From positions 1,504-65,503 of the forward strand of contig CAJTXY010000003.1 in the NCBI GenBank assembly GCA_910583685.1: a stretch of DNA of 64,000 bases, given 5' to 3'. Origin of the DNA: an uncultured Bacilli bacterium. Its GTDB lineage: Bacteria; Bacillota_I; Bacilli_A; RF39; UBA660. Positions 37,658 through 44,641 of this stretch are shown here, piece after piece (position 1 is the stretch's first letter; every line of letters begins with the position of its first letter). The translations under genes and the position numbers were made by a program. Below the pieces are notes generated by a model. It was not told the DNA's origin. It saw only the letters and a list, made by a program, of their open reading frames with translations, and did no database searches.

Positions 37658-38107
37658 ATGGAAATTTTAAATCGAAAAGCAAGGCATGACTATTTCATAG
37701 AGGAAACCTTTGAGGCTGGTATTGCTCTTACTGGTACAGAAATTAAATCGATCCGGAATGGTTCTGCTAATATTAAAGATAGTTATGCTATTATTAAATC
37801 TGATGAGGTCTTTCTTCTTAATATGTTTATTTCACCATATAAAGAGGGAAATCAGTTTAATCATACGGAGAGAAGAACACGTAAACTTTTACTTCATAAA
37901 AAGGAGATAAAAAAATTAAAAGAGAAAATCGAAATGCAGGGTTTTACTCTTGTTCCTCTTAAAGTTTATTTTAAAAATAATAAAGCCAAAATCTTGCTTG
38001 GACTTTGTCGTGGTAAGAAGAATTATGATAAACGTGAGTCGATTAAAGAGCGTGATCAAAAGAGGGAAATGCAAAAAATGAGCAAGTACAAAAACCAATA
38101 TTTGTAA
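37658..38107 (+). CDS. smpB: SsrA-binding protein.
   Basis: 149 aa with a conserved C-terminal basic tail. Confidence 0.9.
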
Positions 38108-38108
38108 A

Positions 38109-38137
38109 TTGCTTTTTCTTTTTTTTTATGATATAAT
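38109..38137 (+). promoter_or_regulatory. Promoter for tmRNA (TTGCTT-18-TGaTATAAT, extended -10).
   Basis: The TSS would fall at about 38150, matching the tmRNA 5' end. Confidence 0.5.
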
Positions 38138-38149
38138 TTAGAACAAGTC

Positions 38150-38495
38150 GGGGATGATATGGTTTCGACGGGAACATTTGACTAGTAGATGGCAAGTCGT
38201 AGGCTTACGTTACAAGCAAAATTAAATATAACTGGAAACAGTAATCAATTAGCTTTCGCTTAATAATTTAGGAAGCATCTTATCTTACTTTTCTCTACGG
38301 AGTAAGAATAGGATTCATTTTAGTAGAGTATATTCTAAATTTGTCTAAGATTTAGGATGAATTATATTAGACTAGTTTACTTTTTGAGTCGTTAACTACT
38401 TTGGAAGTAAGCGAATTTTTATTAGTTAACTAAGCTTGTAGAAGTTTACTTTGTCTGGTTTTCGGACAGGAGTTCGATTCTCCTCATCTCCACCA
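38150..38495 (+). ncRNA. ssrA: tmRNA (SsrA). The predicted tag peptide is AKLNITGNSNQLAFA followed by a double stop.
   Basis: GGGGAUG... 5' end and ...GGAGUUCGAUUCUCCUCAUCUCCACCA 3' tRNA-like end. The GCA resume codon and tag ORF end in TAATAA. Confidence 0.85.
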
Positions 38496-38638: not shown

Positions 38639-40103
38639 ATGAAGTTATATATACAGGCAATTAAATTATTATTTAATAAGTTTATACTAAGAAGAAATAA
38701 TGGAATAATTATTAAGGATTTTTCTGAAAAAATGGGTGTAGTTTATATTAAATTGGCTCAAATGTTAGCAACTCAGAATTTTGGTAATTTGTTTACTGAA
38801 AAAGATAGACAGATATTATCAAGCATTTGTGATAATTGTAATCCTATTAGTTATGATGAAATTGAAGAAATATTAAAACAAGAGTATGGAACTAATTTGG
38901 AAAATATATTTAGGTTTATTGAGCATAAACCAGTTGGAGCTGCATCTGTGTCACAAGTGCATAGAGCAATACTTAAAACTGGTGAAGAAGTAGCAATAAA
39001 AATTAAAAGAAAAGATATTACAAGAACAATAGATGAAGATATAAAACGAATAAAAAAAATTGTGCATAGATTTGGTAGGTTTGTAAATTTTAGTAATTTT
39101 ACTGGGGGATCACGCATTAGATTTATATTTAGAGTGGATAGAACAAGAAACTGATTTTGCATATGAAAAAGAAAACATAAAAATATATCAAAATTTTGCA
39201 GATAGTGTTAATGGGAAAGTAAATGGTACTAAAAAAATTAAAGTTCCTAGATTATATGAAGAATATTGTACTGATAATGTAATTGTTATGGAATTTATAA
39301 CAATTCAAACTGTTAATAAAATGGAATTAACTGATGAAAATAAAACTAGGATTACTACTGCTTTAAATAGTTATATTAGGTCAAGTTTTTGGGCATTGTT
39401 TAATGATAAGCAAATAGTTTTTCATGGAGATCCGCATAGCGGGAATATTTGTATAGATGAAGACGACAATATTTGCTTTTTAGATATGGGACTATTATGT
39501 GCGTTAAGTGATAGTGATGCTAAACTATGTAGAAATTTCTTTTTAACAGTATACTCTGGAAATTACGAAAAATTGTATGATATGCTAGTTTCTTATGGAG
39601 ATATGAGCGAAGAAAAAAAGAAGTTATTTAAAGAAGATTGCAAGAAGTATTGTGAAGATATAAAGAAGAAAGAGGTTACTTATTATTTTATCGATATGGT
39701 CAATGTTTGTTTAAACTATGAATTTGTTCCTCCTAATTTTCTATTTAATATGGCTAAGGCGTTTTTTTGTTTAAATGGTATTAGTAATTTTTCCGATAAC
39801 AAATGTAGTGCAAGGGAATTATTACAAGATCAAACAATGGAGTTTTTAGTTAAAAGAAGTCTAAAAGATTGCAAAGGAATTGTAATAGATAGTCTACATA
39901 TTGCTCCAAAGGTATTAGAAGATATCTCACAATATGGGGTAGTCAATACTATTGCAAACGTAGCGGCTAGTAGTGAAATAAAAAGCGATATAAGACAATC
40001 CTTAGAAAATTTAAGGGAAATGATAGATTTAATTAAACTATCTTTTGGTGATGAAATCCCAGTACAGCCAGACCAAGCACAACAAAGAACAAAGCATTTG
40101 TAA
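38639..40103 (+). pseudogene. UbiB/ABC1 (AarF) atypical kinase gene broken by a +1 frameshift at a G5 tract (39104-39108). It is split into ORFs 38639-39154 and 39288-40103.
   Basis: Deleting one G restores a continuous reading ...FTGDHALDLYLEWIEQETDFAYEKENIKIYQNF...VPRLYEEYCTDNVIVMEFI..., which matches conserved ABC1 blocks. The two pieces together are about 490 aa. Confidence 0.65.
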
Positions 40104-40305: not shown

Positions 40306-40815
40306 GTGTTAAAGGAAAATATTAAATCATTAAGAAAATCCAGAGGACTTTCACAGGAAGAGCTCGCAATTCAGTTAAATGTGGTGAGACAAACAATTTC
40401 TAAATGGGAGCAGGGGTTGTCAGTTCCTGATGCAGAGATGTTAATCTCGATATCAGAGGTTTTTGAAACACCAGTAAGTACTTTACTTGGAGAAGATATT
40501 TCTGAGTCTAGAGTGGATGATTTAAAAGTAATTTCTGAAAAATTAGAGATAATAAACTTACAATTATCTCAAGAAAGAAGCGTAAGAAGAAAGATGATTT
40601 ATTGGTTACTAATTTCCTTATGTGTAATTACCATAATAATTTTCGCTGTTTTTCTCTTATTAAATAGTCCATATTTAAATTGGAATTATAATGATCCTGA
40701 AAATGCTGTTTTAGGAGTTGCTTTTCATTCGTTTGAGTGGTTATTTTTTAGGGTGGCACCAATTTTTCTTATTATATCAGTTGTTGGGATTGTACTTATT
40801 CGAAAGAAAATTTAA
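40306..40815 (+). CDS. XRE-family HTH transcriptional regulator with C-terminal TM helices.
   Basis: The N-terminus LSQEELAIQLNVVRQTISKWE is a Cro/C1 HTH. Two hydrophobic helices lie in the C-terminal half. Confidence 0.7.
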   Translation: MLKENIKSLRKSRGLSQEELAIQLNVVRQTISKWEQGLSVPDAEMLISISEVFETPVSTLLGEDISESRVDDLKVISEKLEIINLQLSQERSVRRKMIYWLLISLCVITIIIFAVFLLLNSPYLNWNYNDPENAVLGVAFHSFEWLFFRVAPIFLIISVVGIVLIRKKI

Positions 40816-41312
40816 GATTGTTTGTGGTACAAATTAGAAGTTATCAAGAGAGGGATAAATATGAATAAAAAAGAGTTTAAGAAAAAATGTAAACAAGAAA
40901 AAACTACAAGTTATAAATTAATGCTATTAGGAGAGGTAATATCTATAATAGGCTTAATCGTTGTTCTATTTACCACTTTTCATTATTAAAGATTTTATAC
41001 CACAAATTGTTTTGCTTGTAATCGGAGGAATAATTGCATTTATTGGAATGATATTAGATTTAATAGGAGAGATAATTTTAACTAAGAATTATAAAGAGTA
41101 TAATAAATAAAACTTAATGATGGAAAACTCTATAGATAATGTTAGAGGCTAAGCCTTAATACGTAGTTTCGAATGTAGTTTTCTATATCAAACAGATAGT
41201 AATCTCGGACTTTTAAAATTTATAGTTCGAGTTTTAATGTGGTATAATAAAAAAGAAAAAAGTATTAACCTAATAAGCTTTTTATGCTATACTATTTTTA
41301 TAAAACAAATAT

Positions 41313-41388
41313 GCCGATTTAGCTCAGTTGGTAGAGCAACGCCCTCGTAACGCGTAGGTCGAAGGTTCAAGTCCTTTAGTCGGCACCA
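41313..41388 (+). tRNA. tRNA-Thr (anticodon CGU).
   Basis: Cloverleaf: acceptor GCCGATT/AGTCGGC, D-arm GCTC/GAGC, anticodon loop CUCGUAA, T-arm GAAGG/CCTTT, CCA encoded. A TGgTATAAT extended -10 lies at 41240-41248. Confidence 0.85.
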
Positions 41389-41425
41389 GATTGATAGGAA
41401 ACTCGAACTTCGAGTAGCAATAGAA

Positions 41426-41450
41426 AACGACTTGTCAAAAAGTCGTTTTT
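41426..41450 (+). terminator. Intrinsic terminator after tRNA-Thr.
   Basis: aacgactt-gtcaaa-aagtcgtt followed by TTT. Confidence 0.6.
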
Positions 41451-41576
41451 ATGTTATTATGAATATGTCAAGGAAACTTGCATAAAATAAAAAAGGAACA
41501 TTCAATATGCCAGTGTTGAGTGTTGCCATTTAATTGGTTACCACCTAAATCATTGGATGAGTTAGGTGGATTTCTT

Positions 41577-41660
41577 TTATATTAAAGTTATGAATAACAA
41601 TAATAGTAAAAGGAAGATAATAATTACTAGAGCAAAGATTAGTAAATCTTTCTTGTTCAT
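41577..41660 (-). CDS. 27-aa hydrophobic peptide (MNKKDLLIFALVIIIFLLLLLLFITLI). Type I toxin-like or small membrane peptide candidate.
   Basis: RBS GGGAGG 7 nt upstream of the ATG. A minus-strand TTGTTA-17-TATAAT promoter lies at about 41713-41741. It is below the ORF-track size cut-off. Confidence 0.35.
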   Translation of the reverse strand: MNKKDLLIFALVIIIFLLLLLLFITLI

Positions 41661-41835
41661 TGTATCGCCTCCCTTCTTTATGAAGTTTGGCTCCACCCAA
41701 CTTATTAAATGTTCCTAAAATGATTATAGCAAACATTAGTTTTAGTAACAAGAATTTTTCTACTAAATTATGCCAATTTAGTAAACACACTTGTATATTG
41801 TCAAAAACAATATACTATACGATGAGGGATTATTT

Positions 41836-42639
41836 ATGAAATTAAAAGTATTAGAAGATAATAATACATTCATTGATATGTATTATTTAGCAGAACCAGG
41901 AGTAAGTTATTATATTGAAGATGGCAATGAAAAAATATTATTTGACACAGGATACTCAACTGTTATTATAGAAAATGCAAAGAAAATGAATATTAATTTG
42001 AATGATGTTAACAAATTAGTTATATCACATGGTCATGATGATCATACTGGTGGTTTAATACATTTTTTTGAAGAAAAAAGAACTATTGAGTTAATTGCTC
42101 ATCCAGAATGTTTTGATTATAAAGAAGACTCAACTGGCTTATATATTGGAAGTCCTTTATCTAAGGAAGAACTATCAAAAGTTTGTCAATTAAATTTATC
42201 TAAAAAACCAGTTCAAATTAGCGAACATATTACCTATTTAGGAGAGATTCCTATTTTGAATGATTTTGAACAGAGATATTCAATTGGAAAAAGTATTGTT
42301 AATGGAGAAAAAATTGATGATACAATAAACGATGATTCAGCAATTGTTTATAAAAGTGAAAAAGGTTTATTTGTTATAACAGGATGTTCTCATAGTGGAA
42401 TTTGCAATATAATAGAATACGCTAAAAAAGTTTGTAATGACGGTAGAATATATGGAGTTATTGGTGGATTTCATTTATTTGATGTAAATGAAAGGTTAGA
42501 AAAAACTATAGATTATTTAAAAGAAAATAATATCGAATTGTTATATCCATGTCATTGTGTATCTTTAAAAGCAAAAATACAAATGTCAAAAAAATTAGAT
42601 ATCAATGAAGTTGGTGTAGGATTAGAGTTAAATATTTAA
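41836..42639 (+). CDS. MBL-fold metallo-hydrolase.
   Basis: HGHDDHTGG (HxHxDH) motif. The ATG at 41836 follows GATGAGGGA. The ORF-track start at 41791 is probably too long. Confidence 0.75.
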   Translation: MKLKVLEDNNTFIDMYYLAEPGVSYYIEDGNEKILFDTGYSTVIIENAKKMNINLNDVNKLVISHGHDDHTGGLIHFFEEKRTIELIAHPECFDYKEDSTGLYIGSPLSKEELSKVCQLNLSKKPVQISEHITYLGEIPILNDFEQRYSIGKSIVNGEKIDDTINDDSAIVYKSEKGLFVITGCSHSGICNIIEYAKKVCNDGRIYGVIGGFHLFDVNERLEKTIDYLKENNIELLYPCHCVSLKAKIQMSKKLDINEVGVGLELNI

Positions 42640-42822
42640 AAAAGTTATTGTACGTCCTTCTTTAGGGCACCATTGAGGTTTCTGTTCGAACTTTTTCGGA
42701 CATTGATATATATAATATCAGTTAATGTGATTGGTATATTTTATTTCCACAGATAATTTTGTTATACTTGGCAAAATTCCTAGGGGTTAAATATTTTGCC
42801 AAAACAAAATATAGGGGGCTTT

Positions 42823-43425
42823 ATGGGAAAATATAAAATTGGTATGGGACAATATAGTAATGTTATTGAAATAGAAGCTTTTTATGAGTTTTTGTGTACT
42901 AGTTCTTTAGATGATTTAGAGGATATTAGAAAAATGTATATGTGTTATCATAACTTTGCTAATTGTTATATCTATACAATAGTTGAATATGAAGATAAGT
43001 ATAATTATAAAAATGAAAATGGTTGGTCTGATAGAGCTTTTTTAGAAAAAGAACGAAAAAAACGTGAATTAATGATAAGATTAACACATGATTGTTATCT
43101 TGCTATTTTACTTCATAAATTAGACTATGCTAATTATAAAAATATTATTAAAGGTTTGTATGGCTATTTTGAACATAGCGATGCTGAACTAAATCCTCCT
43201 TTACTCGATTATAAAACTAAAGAATATATATTAACAAAAGAACAATATATACAAGGTTTGATAAATGCTCAACATGAATCTACAAATGTAGGAGACTATT
43301 TACATACATCTTCTTTAGGTAGTATAATAGAAATCGAAAAAGAAATAATTAAACCTAATGAAAAAGTAAAATGTTTACGCTTAGATCAACAGATACATTA
43401 TGGTGACTTAAAGATATTTAAATAA
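42823..43425 (+). CDS. Hypothetical protein (orphan). The ORF track opens at 42796.
   Basis: ORF preceded by the AAAATATAGGGGG leader motif. No recognisable domain. Confidence 0.45.
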   Translation: MGKYKIGMGQYSNVIEIEAFYEFLCTSSLDDLEDIRKMYMCYHNFANCYIYTIVEYEDKYNYKNENGWSDRAFLEKERKKRELMIRLTHDCYLAILLHKLDYANYKNIIKGLYGYFEHSDAELNPPLLDYKTKEYILTKEQYIQGLINAQHESTNVGDYLHTSSLGSIIEIEKEIIKPNEKVKCLRLDQQIHYGDLKIFK

Positions 43426-44050
43426 AAAAGTTGTAAATAACTACGTCATTAGCACCATTAAGGTTAAAAGTCGCACTTTAGCGATTAGATATAAATAAAA
43501 TTGTTAATTTTAATAAAACTTTGATCCCATTTTTTGATACTTGTGTCAAAATATATAGGGAGTTAGGATTTGTGACCTTTATTTTGAACTATTAAAAATT
43601 TAATATTATACTGTGTTAGTATAATAATTGTTGTTGGTGTAAGATTGCATTAGTAAATGCACTGTTGGGATTCAGATAAAGGACTGGTCGAAGGTCCTTT
43701 TTATGATACTATGTATCTAGCAAGCGGTAATGTCTAGTTTCGAAGAGTTAGGTGCTATTTCAAAAGGATTTGTTTTAGTACTGTAGGTTGATGCTGTTTT
43801 TATTAGATAAAAACTACAATAGTAGGATTATGATAGTACAAAGATATTTCCTTTTTAAAGTTGAAGGAGAATAGTAGACAACAAACTAATTAAGTATTCC
43901 TAAAGAAATATAAATAATATAAACAAGCGAACATAACAGTATTTATGAGTTCGCCTATATTTTGACAAGATGTTCAAATATATAGGGGGCAACGTTATGG
44001 TAAAATATATTAGAAAAATAAGAAATACAATGTAGATAAGGAGGTAGTAT

Positions 44051-44641
44051 ATGAAAAATTATCAGCATACAATAACGGAAAATTCTCTGGAATGGATAAC
44101 TTATTATTCTAATATCAACTTTCCACAATTTACGCCTATTAATTATTATTTGTATAAATATAAAAACTTGTTTAGTCAATTTAATGTCCTAGGGTCTTTA
44201 ATAATAGCAGAAATCCTTCCTTTATTTGAAGATTATAATATTCCATTGGCGGGTAATGATTATTTGCTTTTTGTGAATCCTAGGGATAATATAGCAAATG
44301 GATTTGATATAGAAAAATACCAAAAGTTAGCAACAACAGAACCTTATTTATTAAGACAAAAGCAATATTGGGAAGAATGTGTTGAAGCTTTTGAATGGTT
44401 TGAAAGTCAACTTTTGTTATCCTCTATAGATGTAGATAGAATGATTCAAAAAGAAATTATGGAAAGATATGAATATGATTTTGATAAGGATGATTTAAAT
44501 GCTTATAATATATTTAGAAAATTTTTAAGTGAAACCCAAACTAATAAAGAGGATGAGACAAGGCAATTGTTTGAAAAAAATAGTGATATTACTTTACAAA
44601 AAAGAATGATGGAATATCAAAGAACTAGAATAGGGGAATGA
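44051..44641 (+). CDS. Hypothetical protein (orphan, 196 aa).
   Basis: RBS AAGGAGG. No recognisable domain. Confidence 0.5.
   Translation: MKNYQHTITENSLEWITYYSNINFPQFTPINYYLYKYKNLFSQFNVLGSLIIAEILPLFEDYNIPLAGNDYLLFVNPRDNIANGFDIEKYQKLATTEPYLLRQKQYWEECVEAFEWFESQLLLSSIDVDRMIQKEIMERYEYDFDKDDLNAYNIFRKFLSETQTNKEDETRQLFEKNSDITLQKRMMEYQRTRIGE

Follow-up and report, generated by a model that had tools for sequence, protein, structure and literature searches.

At the 3' end of a tRNA-Thr gene in the genome of an uncultured Bacilli bacterium (assembly GCA_910583685.1, contig CAJTXY010000003.1), a very small open reading frame (ORF) for a hydrophobic peptide lies on the minus strand and converges with a short RNA predicted on the plus strand. 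Is this locus a toxin gene held in check by an antisense RNA, or something else? We addressed this question in the 64,000-nucleotide (nt) stretch of DNA that contains the locus, hereafter the window, and in relatives of the locus recovered from metagenomes. The original prediction, made from the letters of the window, had taken the locus for a type I toxin-antitoxin (TA) system in the manner of Fst/RNAII and TxpA/RatA. Type I TA systems are hard to find by homology, and to our knowledge those described come almost entirely from cultured model bacteria. Our analysis suggests that the locus probably represents a previously undescribed family of type I TA-like modules that would be built and regulated like bsrG/SR4 of Bacillus subtilis. 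Judging from the sequence comparisons, there is very little doubt that the peptide gene is real and the antisense RNA functional, and it is likely that the two form a true toxin-antitoxin pair of type I-like character.

The module consists of a candidate toxin mRNA and a candidate antitoxin small RNA (sRNA), laid out in the window as follows.

41313-41388, plus strand: tRNA-Thr(CGT) gene (ARAGORN, Rfam); the module starts right at its 3' end
41389-41415, plus strand: tRNA-flank motif GATTGATAGGAAACTCGAAC with a small palindrome, a separate repeated element that is not essential to the module
41423-41450, both strands: terminator hairpin (terminator scan), on the plus strand the terminator of the tRNA gene
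41432-41460, plus strand: predicted sRNA promoter TTGTCA-17-TG-n-TATTAT (promoter scan, 10/12 positions, TG extension)
41467-41580, plus strand: antisense sRNA of ~114 nt, candidate antitoxin (fold, covariation, promoter and terminator)
41467-41481, plus strand: sRNA hairpin SL1, invariant, with a GAAA loop and followed by an A-rich linker (consensus structure)
41495-41527, plus strand: SL2, the middle hairpin of the sRNA (consensus structure)
41541-41569, plus strand: sRNA terminator stem of 13 bp, with arms at 41541-41553 and 41557-41569
41570-41579, plus strand: sRNA U-tract ATTTCTTTTA, overlapping the ORF stop codon (41577-41579)
41660..41577, minus strand: ORF for the 27-amino-acid (aa) hydrophobic peptide MNKKDLLIFALVIIIFLLLLLLFITLI, candidate toxin of subfamily A (ORF translation)
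41673-41668, minus strand: Shine-Dalgarno (SD) sequence GGGAGG, 7 nt before the ATG and predicted to be base-paired
41687-41716, minus strand: 5' end of the peptide mRNA and 5' arm of a long-distance helix, with the predicted transcription start site at ~41716
41494-41530, minus strand: 3' untranslated region (3'UTR) arm of the long-distance helix, the complement of SL2 (duplex energies)
41751-41723, minus strand: predicted peptide mRNA promoter TTGTTA-17-TG-n-TATAAT (promoter scan, 10/12 positions, TG extension)
41716-41421, minus strand: predicted full peptide mRNA of ~296 nt, its ends deduced from promoter and terminator
41836-42639: MBL-fold gene neighbouring the module

The peptide gene was found much as originally described. 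The minus-strand ORF is present, its GGGAGG ribosome-binding site has the 7-nt spacing, and the scan recovered the TTGTTA-17-TATAAT promoter with a TG extension; as its -10 box precedes the ATG by 63 nt, a 5'UTR of 56 nt is predicted. The adjacent tRNA gene, which had been mentioned without its identity, is tRNA-Thr(CGT), and the run of T residues noted at the 3' end of the peptide gene reaches the stop codon on the plus strand. Among the small ORFs in the 64 kb, this is the only one that combines an SD sequence with strong hydrophobicity, apart from one out-of-frame intragenic ORF. An exact look-up of a 39-aa GTG-extended version of the ORF found no record.

Conservation in related genomes had been proposed as a check on the prediction, and two samples provided it. 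The first comprised 80 loci in metagenome-assembled genomes (MAGs) of uncultured gut Bacilli, labelled Tenericutes or Erysipelotrichaceae, which were retrieved by anchoring on the neighbouring MBL-fold gene. The second was obtained with an exact 22-nt probe taken from a conserved plus-strand stretch and run on metagenomes. In seven MBL-anchored MAG loci a small ORF lies just upstream of the MBL-fold gene on the opposite strand, encoding peptides diverged from that of the window (e.g., MYKKDFLILSLIIIIFLLIGLLFTFVK and MTKKDFLIFALIVIIILLILLLFKW). In gut metagenomes of humans, rodents and ruminants the probe matched 88 stretches, and a convergent ATG-started ORF with a GGAGG SD sequence was found in ~75 of the ~88 copies having enough flank. 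The open ORFs encode peptides of 23-36 aa that form six subfamilies, end 85-127 nt from the RNA start, and comprise 59 unique coding sequences. Within same-length subfamilies, variable sites at codon positions 1, 2 and 3 numbered 80, 39 and 92, respectively. A shortage of changes at position 2 would be expected from selection for the residues I, L, F and V, all of which have U at this position, so the module is conserved in related genomes with a constraint specific to the reading frame.

We then consider the RNA on the opposite strand. In an alignment of eight loci, the greatest conservation was found not in the ORF but in the plus-strand -10 box and the first ~30 transcribed nt; the -10 box and the sequence downstream of it are invariant in these loci, which were chosen independently of this promoter. 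The loop of the tRNA terminator (41423-41450) contains its -35 box, which is TTGACA in copies that are not located at a tRNA gene. The promoter originally proposed for this RNA, TTGCAT (41479) with TTCAAT (41502), was rejected: it matches at ~7/12 positions, below the scan threshold, and falls inside the invariant transcribed domain, with the conserved candidate lying 47 nt upstream of it. A plus-strand mini-ORF (ATG at 41508, 8 codons) was likewise discarded, as it is not conserved in the eight-locus alignment.

Folding and covariation indicate that the plus-strand RNA is structured. The fold z-scores relative to shuffled controls were -5.0 for this RNA and -7.8 for the minus-strand mRNA. The 48 unique sRNAs align to three elements: a 5' hairpin, invariant and capped by a GAAA loop; SL2; and the stem of the terminator. 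In the consensus structure 12 of the 24 pairs are compensatory. Of the alignment cells paired in the consensus, 96.6% can pair, compared to 25-40% with slid partners, and cells with double changes numbered 114 versus 24.7 +/- 6.7 in shuffles (0/500 shuffles). Many pairs switch between C-G and U-G, which preserves pairing on the plus strand alone, and in 41 of 49 copies SL2 folds more stably as plus-strand RNA. The strong hairpin that had been noticed in front of the T-run is thus real, with arms at 41541-41553 and 41557-41569, 6 nt away from the 41547-41575 first given for it. A T-run comes after it on the plus strand in 44/49 copies, the equivalent run on the minus strand in only 2/49. This asymmetry implies that the hairpin is a one-way terminator of a ~114-nt plus-strand RNA, and that the peptide mRNA must read through it. 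A peptide mRNA that ends at this hairpin, next to its stop codon, was therefore rejected. In subfamilies B and C (L082, L089, L087, L095 and other loci) the T-run of the terminator is antisense to C-terminal Lys-Lys codons (AAA AAA), and the peptide stop codon of these same copies lies inside the sRNA terminator stem. The two genes thus share bases that are under dual constraint.

The 5' domain of the sRNA (GTCAAGGAAACTTGCATAAAATAAAAAAGG, 41467-41498) is made up of a 4-bp hairpin, its GAAA loop and an A-rich stretch, and is invariant in the eight independently chosen loci. The ORF and the remaining RNA diverge into six subfamilies while the first ~30 nt of the sRNA stay nearly invariant, and the rare diverged 5' domains (L018 and the second copy in L087) still hold the hairpin. 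A domain common to six toxin subfamilies may possibly be a shared handle for a host factor or for a cross-acting function.

How might this RNA act on the peptide mRNA? The position of the minus-strand promoter is conserved among 61 unique copies, mostly as TTGTTx-17-TATAAT, and the 5'UTR is 47-65 nt long, starting with AGGRAAYA...GTTGAGTG. In the window the mRNA is predicted to consist of the 56-nt 5'UTR, the ORF and a 3'UTR of ~155 nt that holds the whole complement of the sRNA. The tRNA terminator has a U-run on both strands, with UUUUCUAUU following on the minus strand, and is conserved with compensatory changes in the eight-locus alignment. It is the probable 3' end of the peptide mRNA in the window, from which the predicted length of ~296 nt follows.

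The first ~30 nt of this mRNA pair with the distal 3'UTR segment that is the complement of SL2. The duplex energy of this long-distance pairing was -34.7 kcal/mol for cognate segments, compared to -23.8 for non-cognate and -11.3 for shuffled ones, and the cognate mean was reached by 0/5000 permutations. The pairing is more stable as minus-strand RNA in all 52 of the 52 unique copies and includes 128 G.U pairs, and one arm of the repeat begins exactly at the predicted transcription start. The strand preference and the G.U pairs exclude an inverted repeat maintained at the DNA level, such as the ends of a transposon; terminal repeats of a miniature inverted-repeat transposable element (MITE) were rejected on the basis of this G.U asymmetry. 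In addition to the long-distance helix, the SD core is paired in the minimum free energy fold of 47 out of 56 copies, often with an upstream anti-SD sequence (e.g., CCUCC-GAAA-GGAGG).

Binding of the sRNA was modelled by masking the region of the mRNA complementary to it. Upon masking, the unpaired probability of the mRNA 5' end rose from 0.09 to 0.54. The unpaired probability of the SD sequence was 0.18 in the free mRNA, 0.15 in the masked one and 0.23 with the 3' end truncated, and the SD helix of the window lengthened from 5 to 10 contiguous pairs. These findings are consistent with the following scheme. The minus-strand mRNA (~41716 to ~41421) would encode a 27-aa membrane peptide with a single helix. 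A 5'-3' helix would close the mRNA and bury its 5' end, with a local helix holding the SD sequence. The sRNA, complementary over its whole length to a part of the 3'UTR that takes in the 3' arm of the closing helix, would form with it a duplex of more than 100 bp, a likely substrate of RNase III. Its binding would expel the mRNA 5' end and open it to 5'-dependent decay, and the SD helix could then lengthen, leaving the peptide untranslated. Loss of the less stable sRNA would lead to peptide synthesis and membrane damage. Within this scheme we infer RNase involvement, peptide toxicity, rescue by the sRNA, the relative stability of the RNAs and the transcription of both.

Among known systems the closest in design is bsrG/SR4, from the B. 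subtilis prophage SPbeta and the BsrE-G-H/as-Bsr group, rather than Fst/RNAII. In the probed bsrG mRNA of 296 nt, helix P1 joins nt 1-35 to nt 232-262, and a helix of 4 bp encloses the SD sequence. The target of SR4 is the 3' part of this mRNA, to which the 3' half of P1 belongs; once SR4 is bound, nt 1-33 of bsrG are left single-stranded, the SD helix lengthens from 4 to 8 bp and the mRNA undergoes RNase III-dependent decay (PMC3834814). As a positive control, our folding method applied to real bsrG recovered P1 (30 pairs) and the anti-SD hairpin. The two systems share a toxin mRNA of ~296 nt in which the 5'-most ~30-35 nt are paired to a stretch of the 3'UTR immediately preceding the terminator, a short SD helix with an upstream anti-SD sequence (CCCCU..AGGGG in bsrG and, in many of our copies, CCUCC..GGAGG), and an antisense RNA that converges on the mRNA, is complementary to its 3' part and covers the 3' half of P1 or its counterpart. 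As in bsrG, sRNA binding is predicted here to free the 5' end and lengthen the SD helix. They differ in several respects. The peptide described here has a charged N-terminus and a hydrophobic C-terminus, whereas BsrG is reversed, with KKK at its C-terminus. Our sRNA of ~114 nt lies wholly inside the 3'UTR and overlaps just the stop codon or the last 2-3 codons, whereas SR4 has 183 nt and its SL1 lies outside the overlap. Finally, the hosts here are uncultured gut Bacilli, and the module is often found at tRNA 3' ends rather than in a prophage.

This likeness is one of architecture and not evidence of homology. Homology to BsrG/SR4 was rejected by searches in both directions. The Rfam BsrG model had no match at E <= 1 in 16 loci spanning all subfamilies. 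A covariance model that we built from the 48 sRNAs (CM R1) did not exceed 12.2 bits (E = 0.067) when run on 1.1 kb of the SPbeta bsrG locus, so that no relation to SR4 was detected, and BLASTP of the peptides against BsrG, its sequence verified in SPbeta, gave no alignment at E <= 100. With matching architecture and no detectable homology, the module would work like bsrG/SR4 yet is not a detectable member of that family.

Other type I systems share part of this design. With txpA/RatA, from the B. subtilis skin element, the module has in common a Gram-positive 3'-overlapping antisense RNA, a fully paired duplex and a paired SD sequence (PMC3834814, T1TAdb), so naming this pair in the original prediction captured the type of overlap. 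However, TxpA has 59 aa, our locus has no Rfam or Pfam match, RatA overlaps more of the 3' part of the ORF, and no change of the SD helix upon binding has been reported (PMC3834814). In fst/RNAII (par, pAD1) and SprA1/SprA1as the antisense RNA is also located 3' of the toxin mRNA, with essentially no overlap of the ORF (T1TAdb), and the peptide is small and hydrophobic. Yet functional pairing in those systems occurs outside the overlap, at 5' repeats, and their terminator is shared and bidirectional; here it is one-way, with a minus-strand T-run in 2/49 copies. Fst-style trans pairing with the 5' region of the mRNA finds no clear support, as the duplex energy of the sRNA with that region, -28.8 kcal/mol, is barely above the shuffled controls (-24.1 +/- 4.1 kcal/mol, ~1 standard deviation). 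In hok/Sok (plasmid R1) and aapA1/IsoA1 (Helicobacter pylori) long-distance 5'-3' pairing, the fbi element, also locks the full-length toxin mRNA, but their antisense RNA targets the 5' region, activation needs 3' processing and the hosts are Gram-negative; the antisense RNA described here is directed at the 3' partner of the lock. Of the 24 families in T1TAdb, every Gram-positive one has its antisense RNA on the 3' side (PMC8594479), an arrangement that our locus shares. Rfam scans by E-value found no relevant antitoxin or toxin-mRNA family (TxpA/RatA, SprA1, SprG and others), and our literature search found no publication linking type I systems to Erysipelotrichaceae or containing these peptide strings.

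The distribution of the module also resembles that of TA systems, with patchy presence, tandem copies, and decayed peptide genes beside intact sRNAs. The sRNA was found in just three of 73 further MBL-anchored loci, which indicates patchy presence among close relatives. Six contigs (L089, L102, L111, L115, L121 and L138) carry two copies each, ranging from head-to-tail tandems ~330-480 nt apart to pairs ~2-4 kb apart, and the two copies in L111 encode peptides of differing subfamilies. The peptide ORF is interrupted by a nonsense codon in L100 (codon position 4) and by a premature stop in L159, where the SD sequence is mutated too; it is truncated at its 5' end in L084, L092, L145 and L164. 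Orphan sRNAs that lack a peptide gene are found in L108, L120, L136, L154 and L024. The interrupted or truncated peptide genes and the patchy presence are at most indirect hints that the peptide may be toxic. Searches of a phage collection found no match to the module, those of a plasmid collection found one 54-nt chance match, and the RNA motif had zero matches in viral contigs; a phage or plasmid origin is therefore unsupported.

Taken together, these comparisons point to a coding ORF, two promoters, a structured sRNA, a one-way terminator and a co-evolving helix selected on the minus strand. The type I TA reading is thus supported, since every TA feature that can be tested in sequence is present and conserved. 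Several results nonetheless weigh against it. Across the family the change in SD pairing upon masking is small (0.18 to 0.15), and control of translation by the sRNA hence has weak support. Where copies lie away from a tRNA gene, the mRNA has no defined 3' end, and the surplus of decayed peptide genes next to intact sRNAs carries a bias, as the probe itself was the sRNA motif. The window holds a single copy of the module (CM R1, 89 bits). The Rfam BsrG model (RF01412) reached 13.4 bits in the window against a gathering score of 55 (E = 0.62), and the Rfam families found there at gathering score were tRNA, tmRNA and L10 leader only. Neither did Pfam and NCBIfam, Fst models included, give any toxin family at E <= 10 for seven representative peptides.

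What else could the locus be? The peptide may be a non-toxic small membrane protein, for instance a modulator of a membrane complex, with its expression tuned by a cis-antisense RNA and no addiction module involved. The conservation of peptide and antisense RNA is silent on toxicity, and the peptide has no match to any toxin family. Still, we consider this explanation unlikely, because the peptide gene is solitary, having no conserved partner gene or operon and flanks that vary in every genome, and because it is patchily distributed, tandemly duplicated and frequently decayed. Moreover, the double lock of a buried 5' end and a paired SD sequence, together with a strong antisense promoter, is a known design of toxin mRNAs. 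A trans-acting function has been weighed for the plus-strand RNA as well: its 5' domain (SL1 and the A-rich stretch) would then be a seed or protein handle, and control of the peptide would be secondary. The greater conservation of its first ~30 nt relative to the ORF and the rest of the RNA in the eight independently chosen loci, and the orphan copies in L108, L120, L136 and L154, fit this idea. We nevertheless regard it as very unlikely to be the main role of the RNA. The variable SL2 co-varies with the 5' end of its cognate mRNA through the shared 3'UTR segment, which ties the evolution of the sRNA to the peptide mRNA; the peptide ORF is kept in the great majority of copies; and no trans target was identified for the sRNA. 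A trans-acting role would in any case be compatible with that of an antitoxin, and the two do not exclude each other.

There is hardly any chance that the ORF arose fortuitously in AT-rich DNA, which yields many I, L, F, K and N codons, or that the inverted repeat bracketing it represents the terminal repeats of a MITE. The ORF, with its ATG and GGAGG, is open in ~75 diverged copies under frame-specific constraint and is the sole one of its kind in 64 kb. The repeat's preference for minus-strand RNA in 52/52 copies, with its 128 G.U pairs, is inexplicable at the DNA level, and its arm starts exactly where transcription is predicted to. The diverged open ORFs, the codon constraint and the G.U asymmetry together refute this explanation.

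If the module is indeed a type I TA-like system, uncultured gut Bacilli from human, rodent, rabbit and ruminant samples would harbour a large new family of this type, with an RNA design unusually well supported by natural covariation. The family would constitute an independent repeat of the bsrG/SR4 solution, in which an mRNA is closed by a 5'-3' helix and the antitoxin attacks the 3' arm of that helix, and would argue that this design is a general, possibly convergent, means of controlling lethal peptides in Firmicutes. The natural variants, more than 50 in number, would serve as a ready mutational data set for studying the mechanism, and could be a source of compact, orthogonal kill switches under RNA control for use in gut bacteria. 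The module's association with the 3' ends of tRNA genes may in turn help to map genome plasticity in these organisms.

How the module came to lie at the end of a tRNA gene is a separate question. The block common to relatives of the locus spans ~1.3 kb (41383 to ~42660-42790) and contains the module and the MBL-fold gene; its flanks are unrelated in every genome. The left neighbour of the block varies (L001-L007, L031), being a Thr-CGT, Arg-CCT, Leu-CAA or Thr-GGT tRNA gene or a tRNA-3'-like remnant. Of 95 copies of the module, 33 sit 52 or ~78-86 nt past a tRNA gene on the same strand, representing 13 anticodon types. A further 21 copies have a CACCA string, possibly the remnant of a tRNA 3' end, within the upstream 130 nt, and the remaining copies have no nearby tRNA gene. 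In 28/30 copies the 20-mer GATTGATAGGAAACTCGAAC and its small hairpin come immediately after the CACCA of tRNA genes or remnants. In eight copies the 20-mer is not followed by the RNA/peptide module (L005 7847-7874; L007 1312-1340; also L015, L027, L082, L105, L118 and L156), which shows it to be an independent repeated element of tRNA flanks. The right edge of the block (42650-42700, GTCCTTCTTTAGGGCACCATTGAGG...) resembles a tRNA-Thr 3' end with a degenerate flank motif, as in att-type direct repeats, and no integrase or transposase was found near the module in the window. Speculatively, small cassettes may accrete at tRNA 3' ends, and the module may help to stabilise them. In the stronger form of this idea, which we think rather improbable, the module would be cargo that stabilises small cassettes lacking an integrase, and these would insert or recombine exactly at the 3' end of any of many different tRNA genes. 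The 13 anticodon types, the 1.3-kb cassette with tRNA-3'-like repeats and the 20-mer flank motif fit such a reading; if true, it would mean that uncultured gut Bacilli have a new form of gene mobility, one targeted to tRNA ends.

The module lies in a part of the window (~38-45 kb) of lower GC content, 25-29%. Just past the right edge of the cassette, in the lowest-GC part (42796-44641), are two ORFs of 209 and 196 aa with no Pfam match. On the other side, at 40306-41110 and shortly before the promoter of tRNA-Thr, lies a gene for a 169-aa XRE-type HTH protein with a membrane anchor, followed by two overlapping ORFs of 55 and 49 aa that resemble membrane proteins. Farther upstream is a tmRNA gene (38150-38495; the smpB-tmRNA span covers 37658-38495), directly after which lies a gene for an ABC1 atypical kinase (38639-40103). 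It is split into two ORFs (38639-39154 and 39288-40103) that correspond to the N- and C-terminal parts of the Pfam domain, and is probably a pseudogene.

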